Origin: a virus
Strand: one strand, 5' to 3'
Virus record (IMG/VR): IMGVR_UViG_3300027724_000010
Span: 5,815-69,814 of that record
Length of the DNA: 64,000 nucleotides
Made by a program: the position numbers and the translations under genes. Shown here one piece after another: positions 178 to 46,112 of the stretch; positions within the stretch are counted from its first letter, which is position 1; each line of letters starts with the position of its first letter. Below the pieces are notes generated by a model. That model was given only the letters and a program-made list of their open reading frames with translations. It did not search any database and had not been told where the DNA came from.

Positions 178-636
178 GTGGATGAAATTAACTCTATTGT
201 AGATATTAATAAGCTAAACGAAATGGAGTCTAAAGTACCAGCAGATAAATTAGAGTTTTATAAACCACATTTTGATAGACGTCGACAAGAGTTAAAAACT
301 CCAAATATACCAAATCAAGAAGCACCTAAAGTATATGCTGATAGAGTAGTTACTGTTAATGGTAGAGAAATACTTGTTAAAGTATCTGGTGGTATGTATT
401 ACACTAATGGTAAAGCTGTACCAGAAACAGAGAATGTAACTATAAGTCTTGCTAGAGTAAAAATAGACATCATAGATGGAGTACTAAGAACAGCTAATCA
501 CGAAGGTAAAAATTATTATATTTTATCAAATGGTAAAGTAGTAAGTGCTGATGCAGAAACTTTAGGTTCTGAAACAGTAAAAGATAGATTTAAAAAAGAT
601 ATAATCATAGCGAAAGCTTCTAAATATAAGTGCTAA
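178..636 (+). CDS. hypothetical protein; stop overlaps the next gene's start (TAATG)
   Basis: 152-aa ORF with ordinary amino-acid composition, co-oriented with and translationally coupled to the giant ORF. Confidence 0.6.
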   Translation: MDEINSIVDINKLNEMESKVPADKLEFYKPHFDRRRQELKTPNIPNQEAPKVYADRVVTVNGREILVKVSGGMYYTNGKAVPETENVTISLARVKIDIIDGVLRTANHEGKNYYILSNGKVVSADAETLGSETVKDRFKKDIIIAKASKYKC

Positions 637-3600
637 TGGCGTGTAAAATAAGTGTAAAAGATACAGTATATAATAGTATTGCTAATATAGCAGGTAGTGA
701 AGACGTATTCAGTAAAGAAGCAGCAATTAAAAAAGCTAGACGTATTAATGCTATATGGGGTGATAAAACAGCTACTATAACTCAATATAGAAGTGAAGGT
801 GGTTATAAAGTAGTTACTCATAACCTAGATAAAATAATAGAAAGAGAGTATGAAAAACAATTAAGAATCGAACAAAATTTAAATCAACAACTTGGTAACC
901 TTAATAACGATATACCTACTTCTGAAGCTGAAGTATCAATAGAAGAAGAAGTATTTGATAATACTTTCGAATTCTATAATGTTAACAATCCAGATAAACT
1001 TAGACAATCACAAATACGATCTTTAAATAGTTTATTAGATAGATCTGTAAGAGCATTAGGATTTACTAAAACTACTATAAAAAAATATAATGAAGATTAT
1101 CAACGTAGAAATCCTGGTAAAAAGTTAAATCAACAAGGTCTTATAAATCTAATAGATAAACAAATTGCTCTTGGTGAGAGATCTGAAATAGATGGTGTAA
1201 CTTATGCTGAAGAAGTATTTCATGGTATTGTAGCAGCTAACGAAACAGCTCAGGAGTTTCAAGATATAATCAATCTTAGAGATGCTGATGGTATATTAGA
1301 AATATCTAAAACAGATATATATAAGAAAAATTATGAAACTTATATGTCTGCTTATGGTGGTGATGAGAATAAAGTTAAATTAGAAATAGTAGGTAAACTA
1401 CTTGCTCAAGCAATATATGATAAATTTGCTTATGATAGTATACCACAAAAACTATTAAGAGCTATTGATAAATTCTTTTCATTTTTTACAAAAAAACTAA
1501 GATTAGCTAATCTATTAGATAGAAATCAATTTAATAAAGATTTGTATGCTGCTTTAGATATAGTTATGGAGAATTGGCAAAACGATATGTATAATCATCC
1601 GTTTACAACTGCTGTTCCAGTAACTGTTCCATTTGTTTTTAAAGAAATAAATAATTTTGAAGATACTATTATAAAAAATACATCAGAATTACGATCTAAA
1701 GTTAGACAATTAGAAGAGAGACAAGGTGGATTGATAGGTAACTATAATACAAAATATGAAGATTTAACTAAAAAATATTCAGGAATATCTAATAAAACAA
1801 AATATCTAGCAGATTTAGAAGCTAAAGCTACGAAAACACCATTATCTAGATATGAGCAACAGCAAGTCTCAGAATTAAAAGAGTATTTTATTCTTAAAAA
1901 TATAGATGATATAGATGTAAATAGAGAGAAACAAGTAAAAACTATTAATGGTAGAATAAAAGAAATAAATAATCTAATAAACAAAAATAAACTACAATTA
2001 GGTATACATACTTATTTTTTTGGTATTAATAATAGTGGTGGAGCAAATGAAGATATAGAACAACTTTATAAATATATGCAAAAAGTTGTTAAACAAAAGT
2101 TATTCTTGAGTATGGAATCTTGGCACAGCTTAAACGAATCTTATAACTTACATATAAATATCATAAACGAATTGCGAGCTTGGTACCAAGATAGTAGTAA
2201 TGGTAGAAATGAGTTTCCAGAGTTAACAAAAGAACAAAATAAAAGATTAAAAGATGTTGTATTTGGATTAAAAGTTAAGTTGGATTGGATAAATACATCA
2301 TTAAATTCTTCTGCTAAATCTGTTAAAAGAGATTTTCATAAAAAATATGTAGATTTAAATCCAAATATAGATACAACTGAAAATAATAGTTATACAGAAA
2401 TAGGTAACTTTAGAAAATATTTCGGATCACTTAGAAACGCGCAAGACGAAACTGCTAGATTATTCTATAAAACAATAATGGATGTAAATAATTTAGTTCA
2501 TAATAAAGTATTAAATAATACTATAGATTTTTATAATAAACATAAAGATCTTATAAAAAGAATGGGTCCAAAAGAGTTTAATAAACTTAGAGAAAAAGAT
2601 GCTAGTGGTAATCAAACACATTATTGGTTGAGTGATAGATTAACAAGCGTATTTGAGTTTAATTATAATTCGTTTAGAGAAACAACTATTAAAAATTTAA
2701 TAATATACGCTAAACAAAAACATAACAAAGATTATAACATACCGTTTGATGAGTTCGAGTTATCTGAGTTTTTTAATGCTACAACTTTAAATAATATTTC
2801 TTCTGCTGTATTAGATAACGAATTACTAATAAGAGAAGAATTGCGTAATATGTATAATGCAGCATATGGTAATTGGATAAGTTTAAATACAGAGCTTAAA
2901 TACAACTATGAAGATATTATAGAACAGCGTAGACTATCTATGAATAAAACTAAATTTGCTAAATGGTTACAATTAAATGCTCCTACTCATACATATACTA
3001 AAAAAGATGGTACAGTTGTTACTACTGTTATTTATAAAGGAGAACTTATTAAACCATCGAGCGGTCAAAAAAACCTATTAGGTAATCTAACAGAAGATTA
3101 TACAAATCCAGAATACAATAGATTAAGATCTACTAATCCAGAATATATAGAACTATTAGAAGATCTAAAAGAAAAATCGTTAGATGCTAAGCGTAAATTA
3201 CCTTTACATAATTACTCATGGGAGTACTCAGAAAGATTACCACAAGTATCTAAATCTACTATGGATTTATTTGGTAGTAGTTTATCTAACTATACTGAAA
3301 AATTTAAAGAATCATTTTCAGCTAGACCAGATGATGATATGTATGCTAATAGAGCTGGTAATACAATATTAGAGAGACCACCTATTAGATTTATAGAAAA
3401 GATAAATCCAGATCTAATAACAGATGATTTATTTAAATCAGTAATGATGGTAGAAGAAATGTCTGTTAATTTTGTAGAGTTTACTAAAGAATTACCTACT
3501 TTACATGGTATATTAGATTTAGTTAAACGCGGAGATGTTGTAGACAAAGGTATAAGACTATCTAAAAATCCTAGAGATTCGGTATCTGATTTAGAAAAAA

Positions 3601-5144
3601 AGATGAGAGATGTAATGCTTAGAAGTGTATACGGTGGTAAAGATGAACAATCTTATAATCTAACTATAGGTAGTGTAGATCTTAATAAAGTATTAGATAG
3701 ATTAAAGAAGTATATACGTAACGTTAGATTGTTAGGTAATACTACTGCACAACTTACAGGATATTTTTCAGCAATGCTAAATAAAAGTGAAGAGATATAC
3801 GCTAAAAATTTAGATGGTAAACTATTATTAGAGTCTGAAAAAGAAATGTATTTACATACTATAAGTATTACTAATGATGCTATATCTCCTATTAAAACAA
3901 GTAAACTAACTGCTGCATTACAATACACAGGGTTAGTAACTAATAACATAGAGACCTTTGCTAATGTTAATAGAAGTAAATTATTAAGAGCAGCTAGTAA
4001 AACTATTAATTATGGTGGTTGGGAAACTATAGATGTACTTGTTAAATTACCAATTATAATGACAATAGCTAAAGAAATACGACTTGTTAATGGTAAATGG
4101 TATACTAAAAATAGTTATACAGTAGATGATGATGGTTGGTTAAATGGAGAATCTTTATGGGGTATGATGGAGTTAGAAGATAATAAAATAAAATTTGATC
4201 CTAGAGTAACTCAACAAGTAAAAGATTTATGGTTAACCAAATCAAGAGTATTAGCTAATCAAATAGATGGTCAACTATCTGATTTAGATAAAGCCTCTAT
4301 ACATAATCACTTTCTTTTTAAGTTTTTTACAATAAATATGAACTGGTTATATGAAAGATTAGATAGAGGATTTAAAAAAGAAATATTTGATTGGCAAACA
4401 CAACAAGTAGAAGGTGGTTATTATGTAGTAATTTGGAGAGCTATACAAAGATCACCAATACAATTTGTTAGTGATGTATTCAAACATAACGATCAGTTTA
4501 CAGAATTAGAAAAACAATCATTACGTAGAGTAGCTCACACCTTAGTAGCAGCTACAATGTTATTTATGTTTGTTTATATAGTAACTGCTATATCTTTAGA
4601 TGACGATGATGATGACGACAATCCAATGCTAGCATATTTTATATACATACTTAATAGATTACAGATGGAAGAAAACTCTAAAACATCATCTGTAGATTTA
4701 TTCTCGTATATTACAAGACCAGCAGATGGTATAGATCAATTGGACGATTATTTACCAATAGTAAAATGGATAGCATTTTTAGCTGGAGAATCAGAAGAAG
4801 TAGAATCTGGTATATATAAAGGTTACGATCAAAGTACTAAAAAACTTATACAAGCTACCCCACTATTAAAAGGTTTCTATGAAAATATAGGTGGTGGTGT
4901 AATAAACGAAGCGTTAGGGAAACCAGAAACAAGTATAACAACAGCTATTAGTGGTAAAAACCAAGTAATAAAAAGTAAAATAAATAGCGATATGGGTAAC
5001 TTAGCTTTAGTAGGTATGGGATTATTTACTAGATTTTCTGGATGGGCGTTAGGTAGAACAATAGCACCAGTAGTATCTAAAAATTATAAATCTAGTTTTA
5101 TGGATTTACCTACTAAAAAAGCTCAAAAAGATAAAAATAAATAG
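636..5144 (+). CDS. very large (~1503 aa) coiled-coil-rich virion-type protein, possibly a tape-measure or internal/ejection protein; the true start is likely the ATG at 636 that overlaps the upstream stop
   Basis: single uninterrupted 4.5-kb ORF, long K/E/N/L-rich helical stretches, one C-terminal hydrophobic segment followed by a poly-Asp tract (LDDDDDDDN); no catalytic motif recognised. Confidence 0.8.
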   Translation: MACKISVKDTVYNSIANIAGSEDVFSKEAAIKKARRINAIWGDKTATITQYRSEGGYKVVTHNLDKIIEREYEKQLRIEQNLNQQLGNLNNDIPTSEAEVSIEEEVFDNTFEFYNVNNPDKLRQSQIRSLNSLLDRSVRALGFTKTTIKKYNEDYQRRNPGKKLNQQGLINLIDKQIALGERSEIDGVTYAEEVFHGIVAANETAQEFQDIINLRDADGILEISKTDIYKKNYETYMSAYGGDENKVKLEIVGKLLAQAIYDKFAYDSIPQKLLRAIDKFFSFFTKKLRLANLLDRNQFNKDLYAALDIVMENWQNDMYNHPFTTAVPVTVPFVFKEINNFEDTIIKNTSELRSKVRQLEERQGGLIGNYNTKYEDLTKKYSGISNKTKYLADLEAKATKTPLSRYEQQQVSELKEYFILKNIDDIDVNREKQVKTINGRIKEINNLINKNKLQLGIHTYFFGINNSGGANEDIEQLYKYMQKVVKQKLFLSMESWHSLNESYNLHINIINELRAWYQDSSNGRNEFPELTKEQNKRLKDVVFGLKVKLDWINTSLNSSAKSVKRDFHKKYVDLNPNIDTTENNSYTEIGNFRKYFGSLRNAQDETARLFYKTIMDVNNLVHNKVLNNTIDFYNKHKDLIKRMGPKEFNKLREKDASGNQTHYWLSDRLTSVFEFNYNSFRETTIKNLIIYAKQKHNKDYNIPFDEFELSEFFNATTLNNISSAVLDNELLIREELRNMYNAAYGNWISLNTELKYNYEDIIEQRRLSMNKTKFAKWLQLNAPTHTYTKKDGTVVTTVIYKGELIKPSSGQKNLLGNLTEDYTNPEYNRLRSTNPEYIELLEDLKEKSLDAKRKLPLHNYSWEYSERLPQVSKSTMDLFGSSLSNYTEKFKESFSARPDDDMYANRAGNTILERPPIRFIEKINPDLITDDLFKSVMMVEEMSVNFVEFTKELPTLHGILDLVKRGDVVDKGIRLSKNPRDSVSDLEKKMRDVMLRSVYGGKDEQSYNLTIGSVDLNKVLDRLKKYIRNVRLLGNTTAQLTGYFSAMLNKSEEIYAKNLDGKLLLESEKEMYLHTISITNDAISPIKTSKLTAALQYTGLVTNNIETFANVNRSKLLRAASKTINYGGWETIDVLVKLPIIMTIAKEIRLVNGKWYTKNSYTVDDDGWLNGESLWGMMELEDNKIKFDPRVTQQVKDLWLTKSRVLANQIDGQLSDLDKASIHNHFLFKFFTINMNWLYERLDRGFKKEIFDWQTQQVEGGYYVVIWRAIQRSPIQFVSDVFKHNDQFTELEKQSLRRVAHTLVAATMLFMFVYIVTAISLDDDDDDDNPMLAYFIYILNRLQMEENSKTSSVDLFSYITRPADGIDQLDDYLPIVKWIAFLAGESEEVESGIYKGYDQSTKKLIQATPLLKGFYENIGGGVINEALGKPETSITTAISGKNQVIKSKINSDMGNLALVGMGLFTRFSGWALGRTIAPVVSKNYKSSFMDLPTKKAQKDKNK

Positions 5145-5781: not shown

Positions 5782-5832
5782 TTTATTAAAGTTTGTGTTG
5801 TTATTTCTAAAGCATATAATGTAGCATCTTCA

Positions 5833-6604: not shown

Positions 6605-6685
6605 GACTAATTATTTAGTCACAAAATTACAAAAATTATTTTAAATAATTAGATAATCACATAAATCTTACTCATATTAATTTAT

Positions 6686-13432: not shown

Positions 13433-13882
13433 TTAATCTTTTTGACAATCTCCTCTAATTCCAAACATAATTGGAAATCTTGGAAGACCATCATCAGTAT
13501 ATTCAAAAAATCTTATATTAGCAATCTTACCAATATATTTTTCTTTGTTAGTTAAAAATTCTTTTCTATCTTCGTGTGAGTATTTTAATCCTGCTCTAAA
13601 AGTATAGGTATTAACACCAGATACCTTTTGATTAGTATATTTTAATACTGGTACTCCCCATTCTGGACGTTGTTCGGCAGGTACAATATCAACTATTTCA
13701 GCATCTATATCTTGAAAATCTTTATACTTTAATAAATTAGACGATCTACCATTACATTTGTAATACCCATCAGTTCTTACAATAGATCCTTCATATCCTG
13801 TCGATATAAATTCTTTATGATATTCTAATAATTCTCTTTCGTTTTTTATTTTAAATGTATCTACTAATATTATAGTATTCAT
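13433..13882 (-). CDS. ATP-dependent DNA ligase, C-terminal fragment (motifs IV and V plus OB domain)
   Basis: EGSIVR (motif IV) and LLKYK (motif V); C-terminus YIGKIANIRFFEYTDDGLPRFPIMFGIRGD closely resembles Chlorella-virus/T7-type minimal ligases. Confidence 0.8.
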   Translation of the reverse strand: MNTIILVDTFKIKNERELLEYHKEFISTGYEGSIVRTDGYYKCNGRSSNLLKYKDFQDIDAEIVDIVPAEQRPEWGVPVLKYTNQKVSGVNTYTFRAGLKYSHEDRKEFLTNKEKYIGKIANIRFFEYTDDGLPRFPIMFGIRGDCQKD

Positions 13883-14496
13883 ATTTTATTACTTTTTTTA
13901 ATATTATCTATTGCCCAAAGTGCTTGTTGGTTTTTATAATTAAAACATTTACGCTGTTCTTCGGGATCTGTTAAATCGAATAAAGAACATGGGATAATAT
14001 GATCAATATGCCACTCACCATAGTTATCCCATGACATATTATTTACAAATGATTTTTCAAGATGTATTTTAAATTCTTCAATTGTACAACCTATTAAATC
14101 CATAGTAGTATTTGATTTTTTAGATATTCCAAAAATAGCATGGTGCACTCTAGTTCTTAAATTTTCTTTAAGTCTATAATTAATATCTATTTTTCTTCTT
14201 TCTATTTTATTATTAGGGTGAGATACTCTATATCGTTTATTAGTTGCTTTAATTACTTCTGGATATTTTTCTCTATACTCTTGAGCTTTTTTAAGAATTT
14301 TTTCTGTATTACTATTATAGTGATTTTTACTGTATTGTATATGCCTTTCAGGATCTGCAGCATAAAGTTTTCTTCTTCTTATATTATTGCAGTCAACACA
14401 TACATACCATTGATTCTTTAAATGTTTAAACTTATCAATATTTAAAAAATTATTACAATGGTTACATTTTACATCACCGTTTTCATTTGTTTGCAT
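13879..14496 (-). CDS. HNH endonuclease inserted between the two ligase halves
   Basis: N-terminal Cys pairs (CNHC…CVDC) and canonical HNH WHIDHIIPCS…N motif. Confidence 0.8.
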   Translation of the reverse strand: MQTNENGDVKCNHCNNFLNIDKFKHLKNQWYVCVDCNNIRRRKLYAADPERHIQYSKNHYNSNTEKILKKAQEYREKYPEVIKATNKRYRVSHPNNKIERRKIDINYRLKENLRTRVHHAIFGISKKSNTTMDLIGCTIEEFKIHLEKSFVNNMSWDNYGEWHIDHIIPCSLFDLTDPEEQRKCFNYKNQQALWAIDNIKKSNKI

Positions 14497-14550
14497 ATCT
14501 GTACTTTATTTTAGTACAAATATACACATTTTATTTTACTTTTTATTATA

Positions 14551-15201
14551 TTATTTCAGAATATTTTCTAATTTATCTTTTCTTTCTGAATATAATAAAT
14601 CAGGATCAACAATATCATAAACATGATATTTTACATTTTCTGTTTCTCCTTTTCTATACTTCTTAATAAGTTTCATATTATCCTGAAAACCTAATCCATG
14701 AGCGTATAATTCTCCATCTAAAATAATATCTTGTGGAGTAATTTGTAATAATTCTTTTTGAATATGTTCCATATTTTCAATAATTCTACCATCTCTAGAG
14801 ATTAATTTAGGAACTCTTCCATCAGCGTATATATGAGCTAAACAACGCATACCATCTAACTTTGGTTGTACAAAACAATTATTCCAATCTATTTTGTGTG
14901 CTTCGTCTTTATAAGATTTAGCTAGCATTGGTAGTTGTACTGTATTATCTTCTGCTTCTTTTTCTGTTAAAAAATATCCTTCTTGTAACTTAGAAGCAAT
15001 TATAGAATTAACTTCTAATACTGCTTGTTGTTCTGCTGTAGTAGCGTTAGCTTTACCTACATTTTTAGGTTTAGCAACTTTAGTATGTTCTACTTCATTT
15101 GCTGTACCAACCATACCAGAACGCTGTATAATACTACTACCATTTGCTATTACATTTAAGTATCTAGTATTTCCATGACTATCTTTACGATATATTATCA
15201 T
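14551..15201 (-). CDS. ATP-dependent DNA ligase, N-terminal fragment (adenylation domain motifs I-IIIa)
   Basis: KLDGMRC (motif I KxDGxR), ILDGELY (motif III) and YHVYDI (motif IIIa). Confidence 0.8.
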   Translation of the reverse strand: MIIYRKDSHGNTRYLNVIANGSSIIQRSGMVGTANEVEHTKVAKPKNVGKANATTAEQQAVLEVNSIIASKLQEGYFLTEKEAEDNTVQLPMLAKSYKDEAHKIDWNNCFVQPKLDGMRCLAHIYADGRVPKLISRDGRIIENMEHIQKELLQITPQDIILDGELYAHGLGFQDNMKLIKKYRKGETENVKYHVYDIVDPDLLYSERKDKLENILK

Positions 15202-17392: not shown

Positions 17393-17435
17393 TTTTATAA
17401 ATTTATTTACTGCAAAGATACAATAAATAATTATA

Positions 17436-19237: not shown

Positions 19238-20452
19238 TTATTTAAAAATTGAAAGACATCCTAATACAACATCTTTAAATTTTACTTCTGATTTAGCTAA
19301 TGATTTTAAAATAAATAATTTATTATCTTTTTCAAAAACACTACTATTACCTATTTGAATCAATCTACTTTTTAATTCTGGAGTTACTGGAACGTTATTT
19401 TCAATTATTCTATCAATATAGTTAGATAATCGAAATGTAATAACACTTCTTATAACATATTCATTTTTAGATAAAGCAAAAGATTCTTCAATTCTTTTAA
19501 CTACTGTTTCAAATTTAGGTGTACTAATAATCTCTTCTGGTGTTATTATCTTATCAAAATCGTTGTTTATAAACGCTCCAAAACTATGAATAACATCTCC
19601 AAGAACTATTTGTCCTAGTTCGATTATTTTTGGTAAATCGTTTTTAGTATTTGGATATAATAGAGCTACCTGTTTAAAGAAGTTAGTCCATCTACGAATA
19701 GAACAAGCATTTGTATATTTTTTATCACTAGAATAACCAGAAACTACTTCTGGATTCATAAATATAAAATTTACATATTCGTCTGGAATAATTTTTCTAT
19801 CATCAATATATAAACCATCTGCAAAAGCGCACCAAGCTTCTTTGTTCCACTCTATTTCTATTGGAGTGATTCTATCTGCTTGTGCTCCATCGAGCTGTTG
19901 GACGTCATAATTTCCATCGTCTGGATTAGAAGATAAAAATACAGATACACCTTTTGGTAATTTCCAACTACCAAAAGCTTTTTCTTTAATTATCTCCATT
20001 ACTGCGTTTTGAAAAAATCCTAAGTTTCTACTAAAATCGTCTAATACAAGTATATCACCTTCTTTAACTCTAGATACAAAATCAGGTATAGCATCGCTCA
20101 TAACTGGATCGCTGTTACCCATTACCCAACCATTATCTATATAGTTTGGTATTTGTTTTTGAGTAATCCATTTTTTTACAACACCAGTTTCAGTATCTTT
20201 ACATACTTCTATCTTTATCATCGGATAACCTTTTAATTGTCCAATCTCATCGAACTGAGATAATCTAACAATTTCACAATGTATACCCTTTTCTTTTGCA
20301 AAACTTTTTAATATCTCTGTTTTACCAATACCATGCTCTCCAACTAACATTAAAGCAGCATTATCCATTTGCATGTTTAAATCACATGCTAATTTATTAG
20401 TATTATAAAAAATTTCGATATATTTTTTCGCATCAATTAAATTAAATTTCAT
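19238..20452 (-). CDS. AAA+ ATPase (MoxR/CobS-like)
   Basis: Walker A LMLVGEHGIGKTE and Walker B ILVLDDF; ATGA overlap with the downstream vWA gene. Confidence 0.7.
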   Translation of the reverse strand: MKFNLIDAKKYIEIFYNTNKLACDLNMQMDNAALMLVGEHGIGKTEILKSFAKEKGIHCEIVRLSQFDEIGQLKGYPMIKIEVCKDTETGVVKKWITQKQIPNYIDNGWVMGNSDPVMSDAIPDFVSRVKEGDILVLDDFSRNLGFFQNAVMEIIKEKAFGSWKLPKGVSVFLSSNPDDGNYDVQQLDGAQADRITPIEIEWNKEAWCAFADGLYIDDRKIIPDEYVNFIFMNPEVVSGYSSDKKYTNACSIRRWTNFFKQVALLYPNTKNDLPKIIELGQIVLGDVIHSFGAFINNDFDKIITPEEIISTPKFETVVKRIEESFALSKNEYVIRSVITFRLSNYIDRIIENNVPVTPELKSRLIQIGNSSVFEKDNKLFILKSLAKSEVKFKDVVLGCLSIFK

Positions 20453-21699
20453 TTACTATCAATTTTTAATGTTTTAAAATTATTACCCCAAGAACTTCTA
20501 AATGATTCTATAGATATACCATTACTAGTTAAAACCACAATCATTGGTTTTAAAGGTTTAACTTTTGTAAGAGATACATAACCATCAGTTAAATAAACAA
20601 TAGATGCTACATCTTTACATTCTTTGTTAATATACGCTATAGCAGGATCAACTACTGTTCCACCACCACCACTATAACCTTTAGTAGCTAATCTAGATAA
20701 TAATTCCGTAGAATTTTTATATGGATAAATGGAATCTTTAGTTATACTAGCATCACATTCGACAACTAATATATCCATTTTTGATTTTTTACCAATATTA
20801 TCTAACTCACTAAATGCTTCTTCTATATTTTTACCGTTCATAGAACCTGATGTATCTACTATAACTACTATTTTAGGTTTAAATTTTACTTTAAACATGG
20901 TTACATCATCAAAAAATTTAGATGGTTTAGTGTAACTTTTCTTTATTATAATTTTATTAGAAAATAAACCAATAAACGATTTTAACTCGTTTTTCCAATC
21001 AATTTTAGATATATTAGCGTTTAATAAATCAGATATAAACTTTTTTAAGAAACCAGGGATTGATCCCTGATTTCTATTTAAAGCATTAGCTTCTAATAAT
21101 ATTTTATTAACCTGAGCTTCTATTGTTTTATCTAGTACTTCTTGTGATACTTCTGATTTTTCTAACTTTTTCCATAAATCGTGATCTATCATCAATGGTT
21201 GTCCTTTAGAAGAACATTGATTATATAAATCTTTAAATTTAGGATTATTAGATTTTTTTAAAAAGTTATAAATAGCATCAGTACCTTCTTTGACTATATC
21301 TATTGGTACTTTCATATTATCATCATCGTACCAAATACCACCTTCTATAAAATAACTTTTATCTTTAAATATTTCATCTATTACTATATAATTTATATAA
21401 GCATCTGTAGAAATATTAAATAAATTAAAATCATCATAATCTTTGTATACTCGATAATGTTTAAGAATCAAATGATGTAACTCATGTAATAATAAAAATT
21501 GATTTTTTTTATGATTTTTACTATCTATTGATAACCAAAAATCAGGATTTAAATTAATTTCAAAATTTATACCATTCAAAACTAACCCCGCTGTTGTTAA
21601 AGAATTACTAAATCTTATACTAATTAAAGATAAAAAGTAAAAATAAAAATTACTATGTGCTTGTAATTCATAATTTACATCACCTATTTTTGGATTCAT
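20449..21699 (-). CDS. putative metallopeptidase-vWA protein (DUF2201-like layout: HExxH N-terminal domain plus C-terminal von Willebrand A domain)
   Basis: HELHHLILKH (HExxH) in the N-terminal half; VVIVDTSGSMNG (MIDAS DxSxS) in the C-terminal half. Confidence 0.7.
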   Translation of the reverse strand: MNPKIGDVNYELQAHSNFYFYFLSLISIRFSNSLTTAGLVLNGINFEINLNPDFWLSIDSKNHKKNQFLLLHELHHLILKHYRVYKDYDDFNLFNISTDAYINYIVIDEIFKDKSYFIEGGIWYDDDNMKVPIDIVKEGTDAIYNFLKKSNNPKFKDLYNQCSSKGQPLMIDHDLWKKLEKSEVSQEVLDKTIEAQVNKILLEANALNRNQGSIPGFLKKFISDLLNANISKIDWKNELKSFIGLFSNKIIIKKSYTKPSKFFDDVTMFKVKFKPKIVVIVDTSGSMNGKNIEEAFSELDNIGKKSKMDILVVECDASITKDSIYPYKNSTELLSRLATKGYSGGGGTVVDPAIAYINKECKDVASIVYLTDGYVSLTKVKPLKPMIVVLTSNGISIESFRSSWGNNFKTLKIDSK

Positions 21700-29692: not shown

Positions 29693-30763
29693 TTTGTTAT
29701 CACTAAGACTCTTTATTCTTAGTTTCTGTACTTTTATTTTCGAGTTATAGGTACAGTTCAGACTATATCTTCTACTTTTCAGTAGTGCTGATTTCGTGGA
29801 TATATTATATTCTATAAATTATTATTTATAGTTTCAATATCTAGTCGTTAGGCATTTACTAATATATTATTATTAGATTTAGCAAGGGATTGTCCACTTC
29901 TGGATATTCCCCTTTTAACAGCATTTATACAGAACCCTCATGTAATTTATATATCATTGAAGGAATAATATAAGGTTTAATTATATTAGTAAAATTTATA
30001 ACAGATTTTAGTTTTATATAAATAGAATTATAATAGGAATGATAACTTGCTTCTATATTAAATTTATCTTTTAATAATTTTATTAAAAATAAAACTTCTT
30101 CTTTTGAGAATGAGCAAGTATATATCATATATCCATGTGTAGCTTTACTACCATCATCCATAAACCAAATTGCTAACCCAAAAGAATCAATTTTAGTTAT
30201 AAAATCTTTATTGATAATTTTAATATTATCTTTATAAAAAAAATTTCTATATTTACTAAATATAGGATTAGATTTACTTTTGAAAGTATAATTTTGATTT
30301 AATTTATTTTTAAATCTATTATCTATATTTTCGTAATATCTAAATTTTCCTGCTAATTTAAAATCATTTAAAAAATTATGTTTATATTGACAATACTCTT
30401 TTTGTTTTACACCATGTGCGAAAACCATGCTGGATTGTTTTGCTAATCCTGATATTTTAGATAGGTACCCATCACCTAATAATGAACCAATTATAAATTG
30501 ATCCAAAATATCCGAATCTATACTTAGATATCTATTCGATTTTAAACTATAACGATTTAAATCTGAAATGACCTTTTTTACAGGTATTTTCAGCAAATCA
30601 GCAATTTCTATATTAGTTAATTTATTAGAATATAATTCTAATATATTTTCTGTTAATTTACTTTTTTTTCGTATTTTCATTGTGAATTATTTTTCACAAA
30701 TATACTAAATTAATCCTAATATCCCAACTTTATTATATTAATAAATTGTTAAATATTTTAAAA
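29690..30763 (-). mobile_element. group I intron interrupting the UDG gene after the GQD codons; carries a LAGLIDADG endonuclease ORF
   Basis: UDG ORF breaks at GQD|PYPG; minus-sense R-like CCTAACGACTAGAT (~29843) and S-like GATATAGTCTGAAC (~29748); the last intron base is G (omega-G) immediately before the CCT codon. Confidence 0.65.
29925..30680 (-). CDS. LAGLIDADG homing endonuclease (double-motif)
   Basis: FIIGSLLGDGYLSK and LAIWFMDDGSK motifs ~100 aa apart. Confidence 0.8.
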   Translation of the reverse strand: MKIRKKSKLTENILELYSNKLTNIEIADLLKIPVKKVISDLNRYSLKSNRYLSIDSDILDQFIIGSLLGDGYLSKISGLAKQSSMVFAHGVKQKEYCQYKHNFLNDFKLAGKFRYYENIDNRFKNKLNQNYTFKSKSNPIFSKYRNFFYKDNIKIINKDFITKIDSFGLAIWFMDDGSKATHGYMIYTCSFSKEEVLFLIKLLKDKFNIEASYHSYYNSIYIKLKSVINFTNIIKPYIIPSMIYKLHEGSV

Positions 30764-37178: not shown

Positions 37179-38198
37179 TTAATATTCTACATTTTTTCTT
37201 TTAAGAGGTATTATAGTATTTACTTCTAACTTATTAATAAACTCTTGGATAGACTCTCCAACATCTCTCCCTTTGATAATATGAGCATAAAGTATACGTT
37301 CTTCTTTACCGTTTACTACATGAGTAAGCGGTCTTCCATTATATTCTGTACCTTTACCATTAGATTTTAAATATTTATATGGACTATTTAATACTAACAT
37401 TACATCACATATATGATACAACTGTCTACCAAAATAAATATCTGTATATAAAGGATACATAAGTTCACTTTTATGTAATCTTTCTGGTTTTAGCATGGAA
37501 TCGTTTAATTGAGATAATATTAAACTTGTAACACAAGCTTTGTTATTACCATTTTTATCACCATTCGCATTAGAATAACGTTTTTTAATTATATTTAGTT
37601 TATTAACTAAGTTATTAATTGCTTTATGCTCATCATCTCCATCGACTAATAAAGTATGGTCTAAACACATTAATACTTCTTTACCGTATCCAGGTTGACC
37701 TTCTGAACAAAATAAACAAATATAGTTATATATTTCTTCATCTGATCCACCATATTCGTAATAATATATCGGAAGTTTGGATAATGCTTCCAATTGTGAT
37801 TGATCTATATCTATATCAGCAGCTTTGAGATATAAATCTTTAACTTTAATATTATTAGCTGCTGAAATAATTCTACTAATCAATGATCTAACAGGCATTT
37901 CTAAAGTAAAAAACAAAACTACAGTATTCGGATTTGCTATTGGTGCATGCATTATTATATTATTTAATAATGTAGTTTTACCACTACCAGAGTGTCCAGC
38001 TATACAACATACAGTATTTTTTGGAATACCATCTAGCATAGCTTCGTTAAGATTCGAATACGGTGTTTTTATACCGGGTACATACCCATCTTTTAGTTTA
38101 GATATATAATTATTGTATTGATCAATACCTTTTGTTACTGAGATCATATCATTAGTAACACTATTTGCTTTAAAAGAGTTTTTTTTTACAAAATCCAT
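37179..38198 (-). CDS. DnaB-like replicative helicase (RecA-like C-terminal domain)
   Basis: CIAGHSGSGKTTLLNNII…VVLFFTLEMPVRSL…R matches DnaB helicase H1/H1a/H2 motifs. Confidence 0.75.
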   Translation of the reverse strand: MDFVKKNSFKANSVTNDMISVTKGIDQYNNYISKLKDGYVPGIKTPYSNLNEAMLDGIPKNTVCCIAGHSGSGKTTLLNNIIMHAPIANPNTVVLFFTLEMPVRSLISRIISAANNIKVKDLYLKAADIDIDQSQLEALSKLPIYYYEYGGSDEEIYNYICLFCSEGQPGYGKEVLMCLDHTLLVDGDDEHKAINNLVNKLNIIKKRYSNANGDKNGNNKACVTSLILSQLNDSMLKPERLHKSELMYPLYTDIYFGRQLYHICDVMLVLNSPYKYLKSNGKGTEYNGRPLTHVVNGKEERILYAHIIKGRDVGESIQEFINKLEVNTIIPLKRKNVEY

Positions 38199-38245: not shown

Positions 38246-38779
38246 TTATACTTCGTATATTACACCATCTAAAAATATAGATTCTGAACTAGAAGAAACA
38301 GATACAGAAGATCTTCTTTGTTCTTCTTTTTTTAATTCTATAATTGTATTGTGTAATCTACTATCAAAAACTCTCGATCTATCATATTTATATATAAAAT
38401 TAATAAGATCTCCCTGATAAGGGTATTGTTTTGATCTACACCAGTATATAGCAGCTTCTATTACATCTTCTGCTGTATAGTTATGTAAGAATTTTTTATA
38501 AGCTACTTTTAACCTACTTTGTAAAGCGTTGCTACTACATCTATTACCTTCTGGAAAGGTTTCTAATAAATTTTTTAAGAACTGTTTATCTTCATAAAAT
38601 TTTTGTTTATTTGTTATACCTAATTTACTTGCTGTTTCATCTGTTAATATGAGATTATCAAAAGATAACTCATTATCAAAATCAATTTCTGCAAAACCAT
38701 GTGCTACGAGCGATGCTATAACAGATGGTTCTACCATTCTTGCTAAAGATGCTATTTGATCGTTTGTATAATCATTCAT
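38246..38779 (-). CDS. hypothetical protein
   Basis: 177-aa ORF. Confidence 0.5.
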   Translation of the reverse strand: MNDYTNDQIASLARMVEPSVIASLVAHGFAEIDFDNELSFDNLILTDETASKLGITNKQKFYEDKQFLKNLLETFPEGNRCSSNALQSRLKVAYKKFLHNYTAEDVIEAAIYWCRSKQYPYQGDLINFIYKYDRSRVFDSRLHNTIIELKKEEQRRSSVSVSSSSESIFLDGVIYEV

Positions 38780-38999: not shown

Positions 39000-40070
39000 T
39001 TATATTAAATCTTGTAATGCGGTTTCTATCCAAACTTTCTGTATTGTATTTTTACTCAACAATACATCTAACTCTGCTGTGTAATTCTCTCTATATAATA
39101 TACCACGTAAAAGTTTTTGCTGTACCATATCATTAGAACTATTAATATCTGCTAATAAGCATCTATCTAAGTTTTCATAATTTTCACCAGCACCACCTTT
39201 ATTTACAAGTACTAAATGATTAATTTTACCTTTTTTAAAATCATTAAAGTATTTATCATCGCTAGTACCGTGATAAAAATATTTTGAAATCTGTTCGGCC
39301 ATTTCACGAGTATTAACAAATACTAATACTCTTTGATCTTTATATTGTTCTAAATAATTCTTAATAAATCTTATTTTAGATTTTAACGTATTTAAAAATC
39401 TAAGTCGGGTAAGCGCTAATAACATTTTTCTATTGGAGTTTGTTTCAGAATCTATTCGCAAAGATAAAGAATTATAATTTTTAACTTCGCTTGTGTAGAA
39501 TGATTTTTTAACTCCTGTAACTTTATCTTTGTATTCTACTAAAATATCCAAATCAGTAGATAAAGGTAATAATATATAATTAACATTAAAGGGAGCAACA
39601 TCTTTCGCATTAACTGCATCTTGTGTAGTATATTTATATACTAATTCTAATTTTAACGCATTAAAAATTATATCTCTCTTTGTACGATTATTTGGAATAG
39701 TACCTGTCATACCAACAATTTTTTTATAAGACATTGTTGATACTATATCAAATCTATTCTTATTTAACATTTGTATCTCATCCAATATTACAATATCCCA
39801 ATCAGTATTGGAATATTTTTTTAAACTATTATAACAAATAGCGTGAATATTTAACTTAAACCCCCATTTTTTAATTTCATTTGGTAATCCTACGTCTCTA
39901 ATTTCAGTATTTGGTACTAACCACAATACTCTTCTATATTTATTTTTATTAATAAAATGTAAAAGAGCTAAGGTTTTACCGGATCTTACGGATTTCTGTA
40001 TTAAACATTTATCACAACTATCTAAAATAGATTGTAACTCATCTTGAGATGTTGTGAGTGTATATTTCAT
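39000..40070 (-). CDS. superfamily-2 (DExD/H) helicase
   Basis: Walker A SVRSGKT and DExx box VILDEIQ, followed by a second RecA-like domain. Confidence 0.65.
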   Translation of the reverse strand: MKYTLTTSQDELQSILDSCDKCLIQKSVRSGKTLALLHFINKNKYRRVLWLVPNTEIRDVGLPNEIKKWGFKLNIHAICYNSLKKYSNTDWDIVILDEIQMLNKNRFDIVSTMSYKKIVGMTGTIPNNRTKRDIIFNALKLELVYKYTTQDAVNAKDVAPFNVNYILLPLSTDLDILVEYKDKVTGVKKSFYTSEVKNYNSLSLRIDSETNSNRKMLLALTRLRFLNTLKSKIRFIKNYLEQYKDQRVLVFVNTREMAEQISKYFYHGTSDDKYFNDFKKGKINHLVLVNKGGAGENYENLDRCLLADINSSNDMVQQKLLRGILYRENYTAELDVLLSKNTIQKVWIETALQDLI

Positions 40071-43197: not shown

Positions 43198-44109
43198 TTA
43201 AATTATTTCTTGATTTTCAATTTTATTAACAATTTTATAAGCTTGTGATATATACCAATCTTTGTTTAGATTAGGATATCTCTCTTTTATCTTTTCAACT
43301 TTAATTCCTTTTTTGTAATCAAATATTTCTTCTTTTGGTATATTTAAAGCTAATGTAACTGGTGTATTAGCTTCTATAGCATCTATACCATCTTGTTTTT
43401 TACCTTTAGTCCAAAATTTAGATATTGTTTGATTACCACCAGCATAGTATCGTAAAAATCTATGATTCATCAATTCTGATTTAGCTACTTTAAGATCGGG
43501 ATTATAAGTAGTTAATAACCAAGAATAACTACCAGATCCTTTTACTCCATAACAAAAATCATAAATATTATTATGATTGTTTATTGTATCTTCTATAGGA
43601 GTACCATTTTTAAAATATTCTTGTAATGCTTGTGGTATAATAGAAGCAGAAGAATCTTTATGATATGCTCCTGATTTTATTAAATCAGCATGAGTTTCAA
43701 ATACCCCTTTGGTTTTGATATCTCCAGATTCTGTGATTGCTAAATAATTGTTTATGTCCCGAATTACATATTTTCGGTAAACATTAGTTTCATATGGTAT
43801 TTTACATATATTAGTTATTTCTTCAAATATAGAATTTAATAATTCTACATCTTTTCGTTCTACTAATATTTCTATACCATCAGTATTTTTAGATAAAATC
43901 GTTGCAGTGGGAATTCTTGTATATATTTTATCTGCTAGCATACAAATGGTTAATATGCCATTTATAGTAGTAAATAAAGTAAATTTTGTATCGTATAATG
44001 CTGAATATTCAGAATTAGATAGGCCAAAAATTAAATTTATAAGAATCTTTGTGCTATAATTCAATAAATATTGAGTTTTTTTATCGTACGTTTTTCTTTT
44101 TTCGTACAA
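43198..44109 (-). CDS. family-B DNA polymerase, C-terminal exon (motifs B and C); the annotated start is an alternative codon and the exon probably begins upstream
   Basis: KILINLIFGLSNS (KxxxNSxYG-like motif B) and LSKNTDGIEILV (DTD-like motif C). Confidence 0.5.
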   Translation of the reverse strand: MYEKRKTYDKKTQYLLNYSTKILINLIFGLSNSEYSALYDTKFTLFTTINGILTICMLADKIYTRIPTATILSKNTDGIEILVERKDVELLNSIFEEITNICKIPYETNVYRKYVIRDINNYLAITESGDIKTKGVFETHADLIKSGAYHKDSSASIIPQALQEYFKNGTPIEDTINNHNNIYDFCYGVKGSGSYSWLLTTYNPDLKVAKSELMNHRFLRYYAGGNQTISKFWTKGKKQDGIDAIEANTPVTLALNIPKEEIFDYKKGIKVEKIKERYPNLNKDWYISQAYKIVNKIENQEII

Positions 44110-45137
44110 TCCCTCTAATAAATTACAATATATTTCTGAAGGTATATGCTTTGGAGATACCTTATTTTTAAATTGTAAATGCGGATAATAACTTACACTT
44201 TTTGTTATCTACTATTACTAGTAGTGTCGGACTATTTCTTAATTTTACGCCAAATAAATCCATATATAGTTGGTTTATATCCATTGCATACTGCATAGAT
44301 ATTTTGCCATTTCCAACTAGGATTTTGTTGTAGAATATCTTCTACTGAGTTCCATATTTTTATAAGATTCATATTTTTATCATATTGATAAAAACAATTC
44401 ATCTTTTGTTTAGCTTTACTAACATTATCACTCATTATGAGTTTAACATTAGGGTTATCTCTCCAGAATATTTTAGATCTATTACCTATTTTAGTAGCTC
44501 TACTGGGATTATTTTTATAACTTTCTAGTTGGGATTTAGACATTAGTTTTTTAGTTTCGTCACTAACTATATTAGATTCATCACTATTATCCGATCTTAA
44601 ATTATATCCACAACGTCTATCTAAAGACGTATAATAATTCATCCAATATAACTCTCTATTTTTCAATAAATCTTCATCTCTATCTAAAACTTCAATAACT
44701 ACTGTTTTAAAATTATCAGCTCCATATTTATACCAAGAATTTATTAAATGTCTATTTTCATCTTTACTTTTAGATTTTAGAGTAGATCTATGATGAACTA
44801 ATCTTTTATATATATTATAAGATCTTCCTATATAAATTTTATTATTTATAATATTTATAATACCATATATCCCACATACGTTATATGTTTCTTTTCTATT
44901 TATAATCATATTTTATATTTTAACTAACGGCAAAGATAGTTAAAATATTTAATATTGCGTAAAATTTTGGACGCTTTTTCATTATAGTTTATGTATTATA
45001 CTATAACTACTTCCTGTTATTAAGATATATCGCTATATCTCAGGTAGTCTCTGCACCTTCTCTCTCTGAGAGCTTGGCTCAAGATTATCCTAACTATAAA
45101 ATTAGGGTTTCCTTGAATTCATCCAATAGTTTTAGTT
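44110..45137 (-). mobile_element. group I intron in the DNA polymerase gene carrying a GIY-YIG endonuclease ORF
   Basis: minus-sense R-like GTGCAGAGACTACC (~45040) and S AAGAAATAGTCCGAC (~44213-44228, just 3' of the endonuclease ORF); the exon-1 ORF ends inside PolB motif A (…FDFN). Confidence 0.55.
44232..44909 (-). CDS. GIY-YIG homing endonuclease
   Basis: CGIYGIINIINNKIYIGRSYNIYKRLVHHRS (GIY…YIG…R…H) then E…N in the catalytic domain, followed by a basic DNA-binding C-terminal half. Confidence 0.8.
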   Translation of the reverse strand: MIINRKETYNVCGIYGIINIINNKIYIGRSYNIYKRLVHHRSTLKSKSKDENRHLINSWYKYGADNFKTVVIEVLDRDEDLLKNRELYWMNYYTSLDRRCGYNLRSDNSDESNIVSDETKKLMSKSQLESYKNNPSRATKIGNRSKIFWRDNPNVKLIMSDNVSKAKQKMNCFYQYDKNMNLIKIWNSVEDILQQNPSWKWQNIYAVCNGYKPTIYGFIWRKIKK

Positions 45138-46112
45138 CTACTCTGTTATGTTAAAGTCGAACGTTATGATTACAAATTTTTCATTACTTTCGTATATACC
45201 CGATTCTACTGCCGAGTGGATCCCTCCAGATCCTATTTGTGTTGTTAATCCTTTATATGTAATAGATTTAGATACTGAATTTTTCAAACTTATAAGTTTT
45301 TTATCTGAATTGATATTACTTTTTAAAGTAGGTATCAAGGTTGTAGACTTATAAAATTCTAAAATCTCATTATATATAGGTAAATTAAATTTAATATACG
45401 GTAATATTATATCTTTAATATCTATTTTATCATAATAAGTTCTTAGTTTTGAAAAATCTCTAGTATCAATACTCATAGCTTGTGATAAATATTTATAAAA
45501 ATATTTCTTACCCATATCTGGTTCTGGAGAATTTAATATATCAATCTTATGAAGATTACCAAACTCTATTCTAAGCTTAATTAGTTCTTTTGTTATATTA
45601 AATACATCTCTAGTTACTTCTACGTCATATTTACAATATTTAATAACTTCATTAACTTGTGCTAGTGTTTTTATTTCGTCATTAAAATGATACGGTAAAT
45701 CTTTTATACTTTTTTTTCTAAGTATAAACTCTAAAGCTTTTAAACTCGTAGTTTTTGCTCCGCGTGGTCCATAATTATTTACTAACATGAGATCTATTGT
45801 TTTATTACACAATTTATCTTCTCTATAAATAGGCCACTCACTATTTATTAACTCATCATTAAACTCTTTTATTTCTTTTGCTGTAGATAATCCTGCTTTA
45901 ACTATTCTAGTTAAAATATTCATATCATAACCTAAAGAGTTATAACCAATAAAATAAGTATTTTCGTTATCTTTTAGATATTGTCGTAAATCTCTTATTT
46001 GATTGATATCATTCCACACTGTAAATACTGTATGTTTATTTTCTTTTGGATCATAAAATACAGCAACAAACAAATTTACATAAACTTCCAAATCGAACAG
46101 GACTAATTTCAT
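45138..46112 (-). CDS. family-B DNA polymerase, N-terminal exon (3'-5' exonuclease domain up to motif A)
   Basis: Exo I LVLFDLEV, Exo II FIGYNSLGYDMNIL, Exo III YCKYDVEVT, and the start of motif A ITFDFN at the C-terminus. Confidence 0.65.
   Translation of the reverse strand: MKLVLFDLEVYVNLFVAVFYDPKENKHTVFTVWNDINQIRDLRQYLKDNENTYFIGYNSLGYDMNILTRIVKAGLSTAKEIKEFNDELINSEWPIYREDKLCNKTIDLMLVNNYGPRGAKTTSLKALEFILRKKSIKDLPYHFNDEIKTLAQVNEVIKYCKYDVEVTRDVFNITKELIKLRIEFGNLHKIDILNSPEPDMGKKYFYKYLSQAMSIDTRDFSKLRTYYDKIDIKDIILPYIKFNLPIYNEILEFYKSTTLIPTLKSNINSDKKLISLKNSVSKSITYKGLTTQIGSGGIHSAVESGIYESNEKFVIITFDFNITE

Follow-up and report, generated by a model that had tools for sequence, protein, structure and literature searches.

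In a stretch of viral DNA of 64,000 nucleotides (nt) taken from the IMG/VR record IMGVR_UViG_3300027724_000010 (positions 5,815 to 69,814; the whole stretch is referred to as the window), the gene for an ATP-dependent DNA ligase is present in the form of two open reading frames (ORFs) that are separated by a free-standing HNH-type endonuclease gene. With a probability of roughly three in four, as judged from sequence comparisons, we propose that an intronless homing-endonuclease cassette created a functional ATP-dependent ligase consisting of two pieces. The locus contains neither an intron nor an intein, the insertion is polymorphic for presence and absence among relatives, the interrupted gene is mosaic, the same split recurs in divergent lineages and purifying selection acts at the level of the protein.

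All genes at the locus are co-oriented, and its parts are arranged as follows:

14551-15201, minus strand: ligase N fragment, 216 amino acids (aa), with its own TAA stop codon
14497-14550, minus strand: 54-nt spacer from the N-fragment stop to the HNH start, containing TATATTTG at 14517-14524
13879-14496, minus strand: free-standing HNH-type (putative beta-beta-alpha-metal) endonuclease gene, 205 aa
13433-13882, minus strand: ligase C fragment, 149 aa, with its own ATG
13763-14608, minus strand: mobile cassette with approximate limits, placed by breaks in DNA homology and by a drop in protein identity

The three ORFs, the 54-nt gap and the 4-nt overlap reported in the initial annotation were all recovered. 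In the sequence ATGA the stop codon of the HNH gene and the start codon of the C fragment share 4 nt, and TAA TAA is located in the C-fragment frame just 5' of its ATG. The cassette extends from the last ~18 codons of the N fragment, with their stop codon, across spacer and HNH gene into the C fragment, of which it covers the first ~40 codons. The split arrangement was assembled independently in more than 10 contigs stemming from different samples and different assemblers.

That the two outer ORFs are consecutive parts of a single ligase is borne out by profile searches, and the possibility, raised in the initial annotation, that the fragments might fail to align to consecutive ligase domains did not materialize. 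The N fragment corresponds to profile positions 130-359 (E = 7e-43) and the C fragment to positions 367-500 (E = 6e-34) of PHROG 114 'ATP-dependent DNA ligase'. Likewise, of the 204 positions of the Pfam model DNA_ligase_A_M (PF01068), 1-146 reside in the N fragment and 152-204 in the C fragment, where they are followed by a match to DNA_ligase_OB_2 (PF14743, E = 1.9e-9). Accordingly, ~residues 1-90 of the N fragment form an N-terminal domain of the DNA-binding type, with three quarters of the nucleotidyltransferase (NTase) domain following, while the C fragment provides the final quarter of the latter and the entire OB domain with motif VI. The characteristic ligase motifs are distributed over the two ORFs as follows:

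14851-14862, minus strand: motif I, KLDG, N fragment
14710-14718, minus strand: motif III, DGE, N fragment
14614-14628, minus strand: motif IIIa, YHVYD, N fragment
13775-13792, minus strand: motif IV, EGSIVR, C fragment, NTase domain
13721-13735, minus strand: motif V, LLKYK, C fragment, NTase domain
13448-13480, minus strand: motif VI, RFP...R.D, C fragment, OB domain, with RFP...G.R.D conserved

Across 68 homologues, the columns of motifs I, III, IIIa, IV and V are invariant or nearly so. When joined, the fragments add up to 365 aa (216 + 149), with intact homologues of 362-367 aa being colinear, and the joined protein can be aligned over its entire length with thousands of homologues that are single chains, the closest of which are at most 79% identical. 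The agreement is far beyond chance. The fused sequence matches ligases in the PDB (E = 1e-20), its alignment with the Chlorella virus ligase is unbroken through the junction, and in Foldseek comparisons the fused model matches the full-length ligases of African swine fever virus, T4 and Chlorella virus with template modelling (TM) scores of up to 0.74 (E = 1e-23).

It is the catalytic NTase domain itself that is broken, at a surface loop that separates motif IIIa from motif IV. In the AlphaFold model of the joined sequence (mean predicted local distance difference test score, pLDDT, of 93.4), helix 204-214 is the final structural element of the N fragment and the junction 216/217 falls into the short loop that leads from this helix to strand 220-222. 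Strands 248-253 and 262-269 correspond to motifs IV and V, respectively, and the OB domain begins only at about residue 273. The initial annotation had placed the break in the linker between the NTase and OB domains, which is refuted by the residence of motifs IV and V in the C fragment. The alignment with the Chlorella virus ligase that had been suggested there as a check confirms the colinearity of the fragments and speaks against the linker position, as the junction corresponds to about residue 120-125 of an NTase domain of ~190 residues. The segment that holds the break is the most variable of the family in both length and sequence.

Related phages that lack the HNH gene carry an intact single-ORF ligase at the same locus, replacing the split one. 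Such ligases of 365-367 aa are encoded on the syntenic contigs L013 and L014 (protein P0003) and L009 to L012 (protein P0002), which share the MazG...ligase...GGACT gene neighbourhood with the window. DNA homology between the window and the contigs with intact alleles ends at 14609 and returns at 13874 or 13762. Intact and split alleles were found in the same sewage and wastewater projects. With regard to an intact ligase elsewhere in this phage, which the initial annotation had also considered, no second ATP-dependent ligase homologue was detected in the 64-kb window, and none of its ORFs exceeding 550 aa contains a ligase domain. A megablast search of the 2-kb region against annotated phages gave no match, and a cultured close relative is therefore not available.

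Comparison of split and intact alleles indicated that the ligase gene is a mosaic. In the window, ligase residues 1-120 are 92-100% identical to the intact protein P0001, residues 110-195 are 96-100% identical to P0002 and residues 265-365 are ~100% identical to P0001, P0002 and P0003. Around the break (residues 193-250), identity to these three intact proteins amounts to 20-48%, and other split alleles match better (44-52%). The N fragment of contigs L001 and L002 is 84% identical to that of the window; the differences are dense in codons 5-118, where L001 and L002 are identical to the intact P0003, and sparse in codons 118-185, while the stretch that begins at codon 186 and runs across the spacer into the HNH gene is free of differences. 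In the pair of split contigs L179 and L181, flanks of 100% identity enclose a block of 80-89% identity, which extends from the spacer across the HNH gene to codon 55 of the C fragment. By these comparisons, the cassette block is of different ancestry from the rest of the ligase gene. The mosaics in L001/L002, the window and L179/L181 therefore identify the mobile unit as the cassette, i.e., the endonuclease gene together with the adjoining fragment ends. Presence/absence polymorphism at one site, combined with co-converted flanks, occurs among close relatives, and the pattern of the cassette is that expected of intronless homing with co-conversion (PMC2988022; PMC10448857).

An observation in its own right concerns the intact alleles. 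P0001, P0002 and P0003 (contigs L009 to L014) are ~100% identical over their C-terminal 100 residues and strongly divergent at residues ~195-250. This divergent segment, extending from motif IIIa to motif IV, is the one occupied by the cassette in split alleles, and its divergence could stem from recombination or from selection to escape cleavage.

The split is not confined to the lineage represented by the window. The five nearest relatives of the HNH protein (49-60% identity), which were retrieved from a large protein database and not from the contig collections, are all encoded by genes with a ligase N fragment (214-219 aa) on one side and a C fragment (138-142 aa) on the other, in differing genomic contexts that include a 162-kb contig. 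Termination at the identical residue was also seen in two additional N fragments, P0259 and P0296. At least six divergent lineages, the ligase halves of which are mutually only 42-58% identical, thus share both the split and its position. All six catalytic ligase motifs are retained in every split allele. The N fragments end after (Y/F)S(E/D)R...L.NI(F/L) and the C fragments begin with M-x-N-I-x-L-V-x-T. The start codon of the C fragment is conserved in position in all split lineages and overlaps the 3' end of the HNH gene by 4-32 nt. Not a single frameshifted or truncated split copy was found among more than 15 contigs.

Between L179 and L181, the N fragment has a ratio of non-synonymous to synonymous divergence (dN/dS) of 0.12, the C fragment one of 0.18 and the HNH gene one of 0.19. 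Especially informative in this pair are the 55 codons of the C fragment that are linked to the HNH gene, because they always travel with it and have therefore evolved in the split state. Here, the proportion of synonymous differences is 0.72 (pS) and that of non-synonymous differences 0.13 (pN; Fisher p = 5e-10). High synonymous combined with low non-synonymous divergence points to a constraint on the protein and not on the DNA as a homology arm, such that the cassette-linked ligase codons are, on the evidence of these counts, under strong purifying selection. A comparison of the C fragments of the window and contig L003 revealed five synonymous and no non-synonymous differences. The protein-level constraint on cassette-linked codons is the main argument for reading the two-piece ligase as functional.

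On this basis we envisage the following course of events. An HNH-type homing endonuclease gene, together with adjoining ligase codons, would have come to occupy the NTase surface loop between motifs IIIa and IV. The upstream part would receive its stop codon from the cassette and the downstream part its start codon, which overlaps the end of the endonuclease gene; a short spacer with a predicted promoter would come along as well. Neither RNA nor protein splicing would restore a single chain. The phage would produce two polypeptides, motifs I, III and IIIa residing in the first along with the N-terminal domain, and motifs IV and V in the second along with the OB domain and its motif VI. The two chains are predicted to associate non-covalently and to rebuild the nucleotide-binding beta-sheet core, which would yield an active ligase. 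The HNH protein probably cleaves DNA site-specifically, and the cassette would spread between related phages by endonuclease-stimulated or by ordinary homologous recombination, with crossovers resolving in the conserved coding DNA of motifs IIIa and V and mosaic ligase genes as the outcome.

Several points weigh against a functional two-piece enzyme. As the break is inside the catalytic domain, activity demands that two chains co-fold into one beta-sheet core, and the literature searched holds no precedent for a co-folded two-chain ATP-dependent ligase. Phage ligases, such as those of T4 and T7, are often dispensable since the host ligase can substitute, and an inactivating insertion could for this reason be tolerated. 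Recombination with intact alleles affects the outer parts of the fragments, such that selection in the split state can be read only from the cassette-linked codons, and the estimates for these codons were obtained by simple Nei-Gojobori counting in a genome of 26% guanine-plus-cytosine (GC) content with synonymous divergence (dS) near saturation. In addition, the HNH assignment of the middle gene is drawn from weak fold and profile matches, and the search for a second ligase covered 64 kb of a contig that measures 69.8 kb or more.

Some of these points bear directly on the alternative that the ligase was inactivated by insertion of a selfish endonuclease, that the two ORFs are decaying remnants and that the phage makes use of the host ligase. 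The position of the break inside the catalytic NTase domain and the dispensability of the ligase in some phages are compatible with such a scenario, and so is the apparently recent transfer of the cassette in the window lineage, where spacer and HNH start are free of differences between two backgrounds. Decaying remnants would, however, hardly be expected to persist as open ORFs with six intact motifs in at least six lineages that have diverged as far as the HNH proteins and ligase halves described above, to retain start and stop codons at the same position in all of them, to accumulate synonymous over non-synonymous differences in precisely those codons that are linked to the cassette, and to leave no degraded copy among the contigs inspected. 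We therefore consider inactivation unlikely. The preference of the initial annotation for a functional split over inactivation is upheld, while the reason given for it, a break in an interdomain linker, was wrong; the support comes instead from recurrence and purifying selection.

The gene in the middle is an ORF with its own start and stop codons that is part of neither an intron nor an intein. Its product has a zinc-ribbon-like CxxC...CxxC element in the N-terminal part, followed by a region of helical repeats, and bears the nuclease motif WHIDHIIP...N...N in the C-terminal part, where the structural model (pLDDT 89) shows a beta-beta-alpha unit. Residues D165, H166, N189 and N198 are invariant in the family. 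Pfam searches with the HNH protein and 72 relatives returned no significant HNH model, the family is not represented by a Pfam model of its own, and comparison of the family profile with PDB sequences gave no meaningful match. Based on the motif, PHROG matches and weak fold matches, the classification of the middle ORF as HNH is moderately supported. The family is large: the protein database holds 910 relatives, and the viral and metagenomic loci number in the hundreds. A tblastn search with the HNH protein against annotated phages yielded relatives of at most 44% identity, none of them within a ligase, and scans of viral and metagenome contig collections retrieved relatives of up to 50% identity only. 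Among 160 HNH loci on these contigs, only L017 and L099, which stem from the same phage, adjoin a ligase gene, and this gene is intact. In L099 (38-1804), a family member of 42% identity is located 57 nt downstream of the gene for an intact 370-aa ligase, an arrangement that may represent an intergenic form of the same endonuclease-ligase association.

It is also conceivable that the split ligase is functional and that the endonuclease has been domesticated, be it as an assembly or regulatory subunit, as part of nick-and-seal repair or as an anti-defence module. The HNH gene is under purifying selection (dN/dS as given above) and shows a translational link with the C fragment in all lineages, and the distant family member directly downstream of an intact ligase in L099 suggests that the association is recurrent. 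Yet purifying selection is also expected of a homing endonuclease gene for as long as it is spreading, the presence/absence polymorphism, the exchange of cassettes and the mosaics resembling co-conversion mark an active mobile element, and most members of the family, at hundreds of loci, reside away from any ligase. Domestication thus appears improbable to us.

With regard to splicing, the non-coding part of the insertion is confined to the 54 nt upstream of the HNH gene (27-41 nt in the other split lineages), and no non-coding sequence is present downstream of it. The DNA polymerase gene of the same phage served as positive control:

43198-46112, minus strand: DNA polymerase in two pieces, PHROG 1252
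45138-46112, minus strand: polymerase piece, PHROG 1252 positions 53-357
43198-44109, minus strand: polymerase piece, PHROG 1252 positions 386-654
44232-44909, minus strand: GIY-YIG endonuclease ORF between the polymerase pieces, with non-coding flanks of 228 and 122 nt
44967-45126, minus strand: group I intron match, Rfam, E = 1.2e-9, 43.8 bits (below the gathering score of 50)
44208-44374, minus strand: group I intron match, Rfam, E = 2e-4

In the polymerase intron, the UAGUC strand of P7 overlaps the stop codon of the GIY-YIG ORF. A broad Rfam scan of 3.5 kb missed this intron, which was found in a scan of 1.1 kb, and the scan of the ligase was therefore repeated at narrow width. Rfam searches detected no intron at E <= 10 in the 2.6 kb around the ligase or in the 781-nt insertion alone, the latter scan also being negative for the group I intron model RF00028 at this threshold, whereas the equivalent narrow scan of the polymerase insertion returned both matches listed above. 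The second polymerase exon is devoid of an ATG of its own, whereas that of the ligase C fragment is kept in all split lineages. The statement of the initial annotation that there is no room for an intron thus holds.

Individual candidates were rejected for the following reasons. A group I intron needs ~200 nt or more of P3-P9 core outside the ORF, and only 54 nt are non-coding. Split inteins are excluded because the fragments contain nothing beyond ligase sequence; they end and begin within it, the alignment is continuous and the total length is 365 aa as compared with 362-367 aa. Read-through from the N fragment into the HNH gene, which is in the same frame, is precluded by three in-frame TAA codons in the spacer.

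Restoration of a single ligase chain by splicing, either through a group I or group II intron that holds the HNH ORF or through split inteins, is suggested by the very frequent residence of phage endonuclease genes in introns, as in the polymerase gene of this phage, by the motif I intein of some ligase homologues such as P0245 and by the published case of a fractured ligase in which split inteins flank a homing endonuclease gene (Dassa et al., 2009; PMC2677866), but is highly improbable in view of the short non-coding stretch, the negative Rfam scans under conditions that detect the polymerase intron, the conserved ATG of the C fragment, fragment lengths that sum to that of an intact ligase and the lack of intein blocks. 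As a separate observation, the ligase homologues P0245, P0258 and P0286 (~700 aa) contain an intein of ~340 aa with LAGLIDADG-like motifs right after motif I (KLDG/C...HN/C). Given these intein-bearing homologues, the ligase family is targeted by at least two kinds of mobile elements at two sites.

Concerning expression, TATATTTG in the spacer, 20 nt upstream of the HNH ATG, matches TAnnTTTG, the -7 promoter consensus of Bacteroidota. The motif is exact in the spacers of four of the six split lineages and near-exact in the other two. Seven TAnnTTTG motifs are located 10-30 nt upstream of start codons in the whole window (2.4 +/- 1.5 expected), three of which precede the three endonuclease genes of the window:

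14517-14524, 44931-44938, 17413-17420, 30697-30704 and 6622-6629, minus strand: TAnnTTTG sites 16-21 nt upstream of start codons
6101-6604, minus strand: third endonuclease gene, with NUMOD4, HNH_3 and AP2 domains and TAATTTTG 17 nt upstream of its start

The spacer motif may be the endonuclease gene's own promoter. Scans for sigma-70 promoters and terminators gave nothing above shuffled background, and no terminator-like hairpin was found in the ligase/HNH region. The start codons at the locus are not preceded by Shine-Dalgarno sequences, and the nucleotides shared by the HNH stop and the C-fragment start are suggestive of translational coupling. The TAnnTTTG motifs, the absence of Shine-Dalgarno sequences and the low GC content of the window (25.8%) hint at a Bacteroidota host for this wastewater phage.

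Further features of the window are:

630-5144, plus strand: 1504-aa ORF, on the strand opposite to almost all other genes, without Pfam or PHROG match
20449-21699, minus strand: ORF that matches PHROG 1314 'HNH endonuclease' (E = 2e-46), whereas Pfam assigns DUF2201 VWA-like and metallopeptidase domains and no nuclease domain
37179-38198, minus strand: 339-aa ORF that matches only positions 1-106 of the 255-position DnaB_C profile
38246-38779, minus strand: unassigned 177-aa ORF between the DnaB_C-like and DEAD/Helicase_C ORFs
39000-40070, minus strand: 356-aa ORF with DEAD and Helicase_C pieces
57774-57858, minus strand: a single tRNA-Leu gene (anticodon TAA)

Among known systems, the split ligase resembles in its proposed mode of operation the ribonucleotide reductase of Aeromonas phage Aeh1, the nrdA-a / mobE / nrdA-b arrangement of which is referred to as 'genes-in-pieces' (Friedrich et al., 2007, PNAS, cited in PMC2988022; Crona et al., 2010, PMC3045599). 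Both loci feature two ORFs with their own stop and start codons, lack splicing, have intact counterparts in related phages and possess insertion flanks that differ from uninterrupted alleles. Unlike in Aeh1, the interrupted gene is that of an ATP-dependent DNA ligase, and its split recurs in several divergent lineages in the form of a cassette. Moreover, new tails derived from the insertion are essential for assembly in Aeh1, whereas the ligase has not gained extra residues: its connecting loop is 2-6 residues shorter than in intact relatives, and both new termini are conserved among split alleles. While the activity of the split NrdA was demonstrated experimentally, that of the split ligase is inferred.

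Other genes split by endonuclease genes comprise T4 topoisomerase genes 39/60 with mobA, gene 43 with seg43 in Aeromonas phage 25 and nrdD in Felix O1-like phages (PMC2988022; PMC4837284). In these cases, too, the endonuclease gene is situated between the halves of a gene for replication or nucleotide metabolism; the host gene and the endonuclease family are different, and none of them concerns a covalent nucleotidyltransferase split within its catalytic fold. The free-standing seg and mob endonucleases of T4 are known for intronless homing and localized marker exclusion (PMC2988022), with exchange boundaries described by Barth et al. (2023; PMC10448857). As in the ligase cassettes of L001/L002, the window and L179/L181, these endonuclease genes move together with their flanks and leave co-conversion tracts as well as recombination boundaries that adjoin the nuclease gene. 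The T4 genes usually reside between genes, whereas the cassette is inserted into coding sequence and carries codons that keep both halves translatable. As the sole proven example of a working gene split by a free-standing homing endonuclease, a paper from 2023 still cites the Aeh1 ribonucleotide reductase.

A two-piece ligase around a homing endonuclease gene in environmental phage-like DNA also figures among the 'fractured genes' of Dassa et al. (2009; PMC2677866), where each piece bears a split-intein half and trans-splicing takes place. In contrast to those loci, no intein sequence is present in the ligase described here. The ligase of phage T5 is of the NAD-dependent type. For the T5-like phage AKFV33, the ligase is annotated as two adjacent ORFs, ORF119 and ORF120, without mention of an intervening endonuclease gene (PMC3326045), and the encoding of a phage ligase by two ORFs is shared with the locus described here. 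No earlier description of an endonuclease-split ATP-dependent ligase was found in the literature searched, coverage of which was incomplete, and no close counterpart of the split ligase was found among annotated phages.

We tentatively put forward, as an idea that has somewhat less than an even chance of being correct, that the mobile unit is a self-contained 'split-site module'. Equipped with its own stop codon, promoter and start codon and with two complementary conserved ligase termini, it would enter divergent ligase genes at the same loop and leave behind a working two-subunit enzyme. If this were true, the split-site module would be the protein-complementation counterpart of a self-splicing intron, its conserved termini would be portable assembly elements, and the NTase core of the ligase would be a naturally validated scaffold for split enzymes.

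Very few cases of working genes that are split by free-standing homing endonucleases have been studied. As far as annotation is concerned, ligase halves of this kind are easily miscalled as truncated or pseudogenised ligases. The split ligase offers a natural test of two-chain assembly of a nucleotidyltransferase core, and a ligase split by nature could also be put to use as a two-component enzyme with conditional assembly. For the phages concerned, a functional two-piece ligase would reveal a selfish element that carries the sequence needed to neutralise its own damage.

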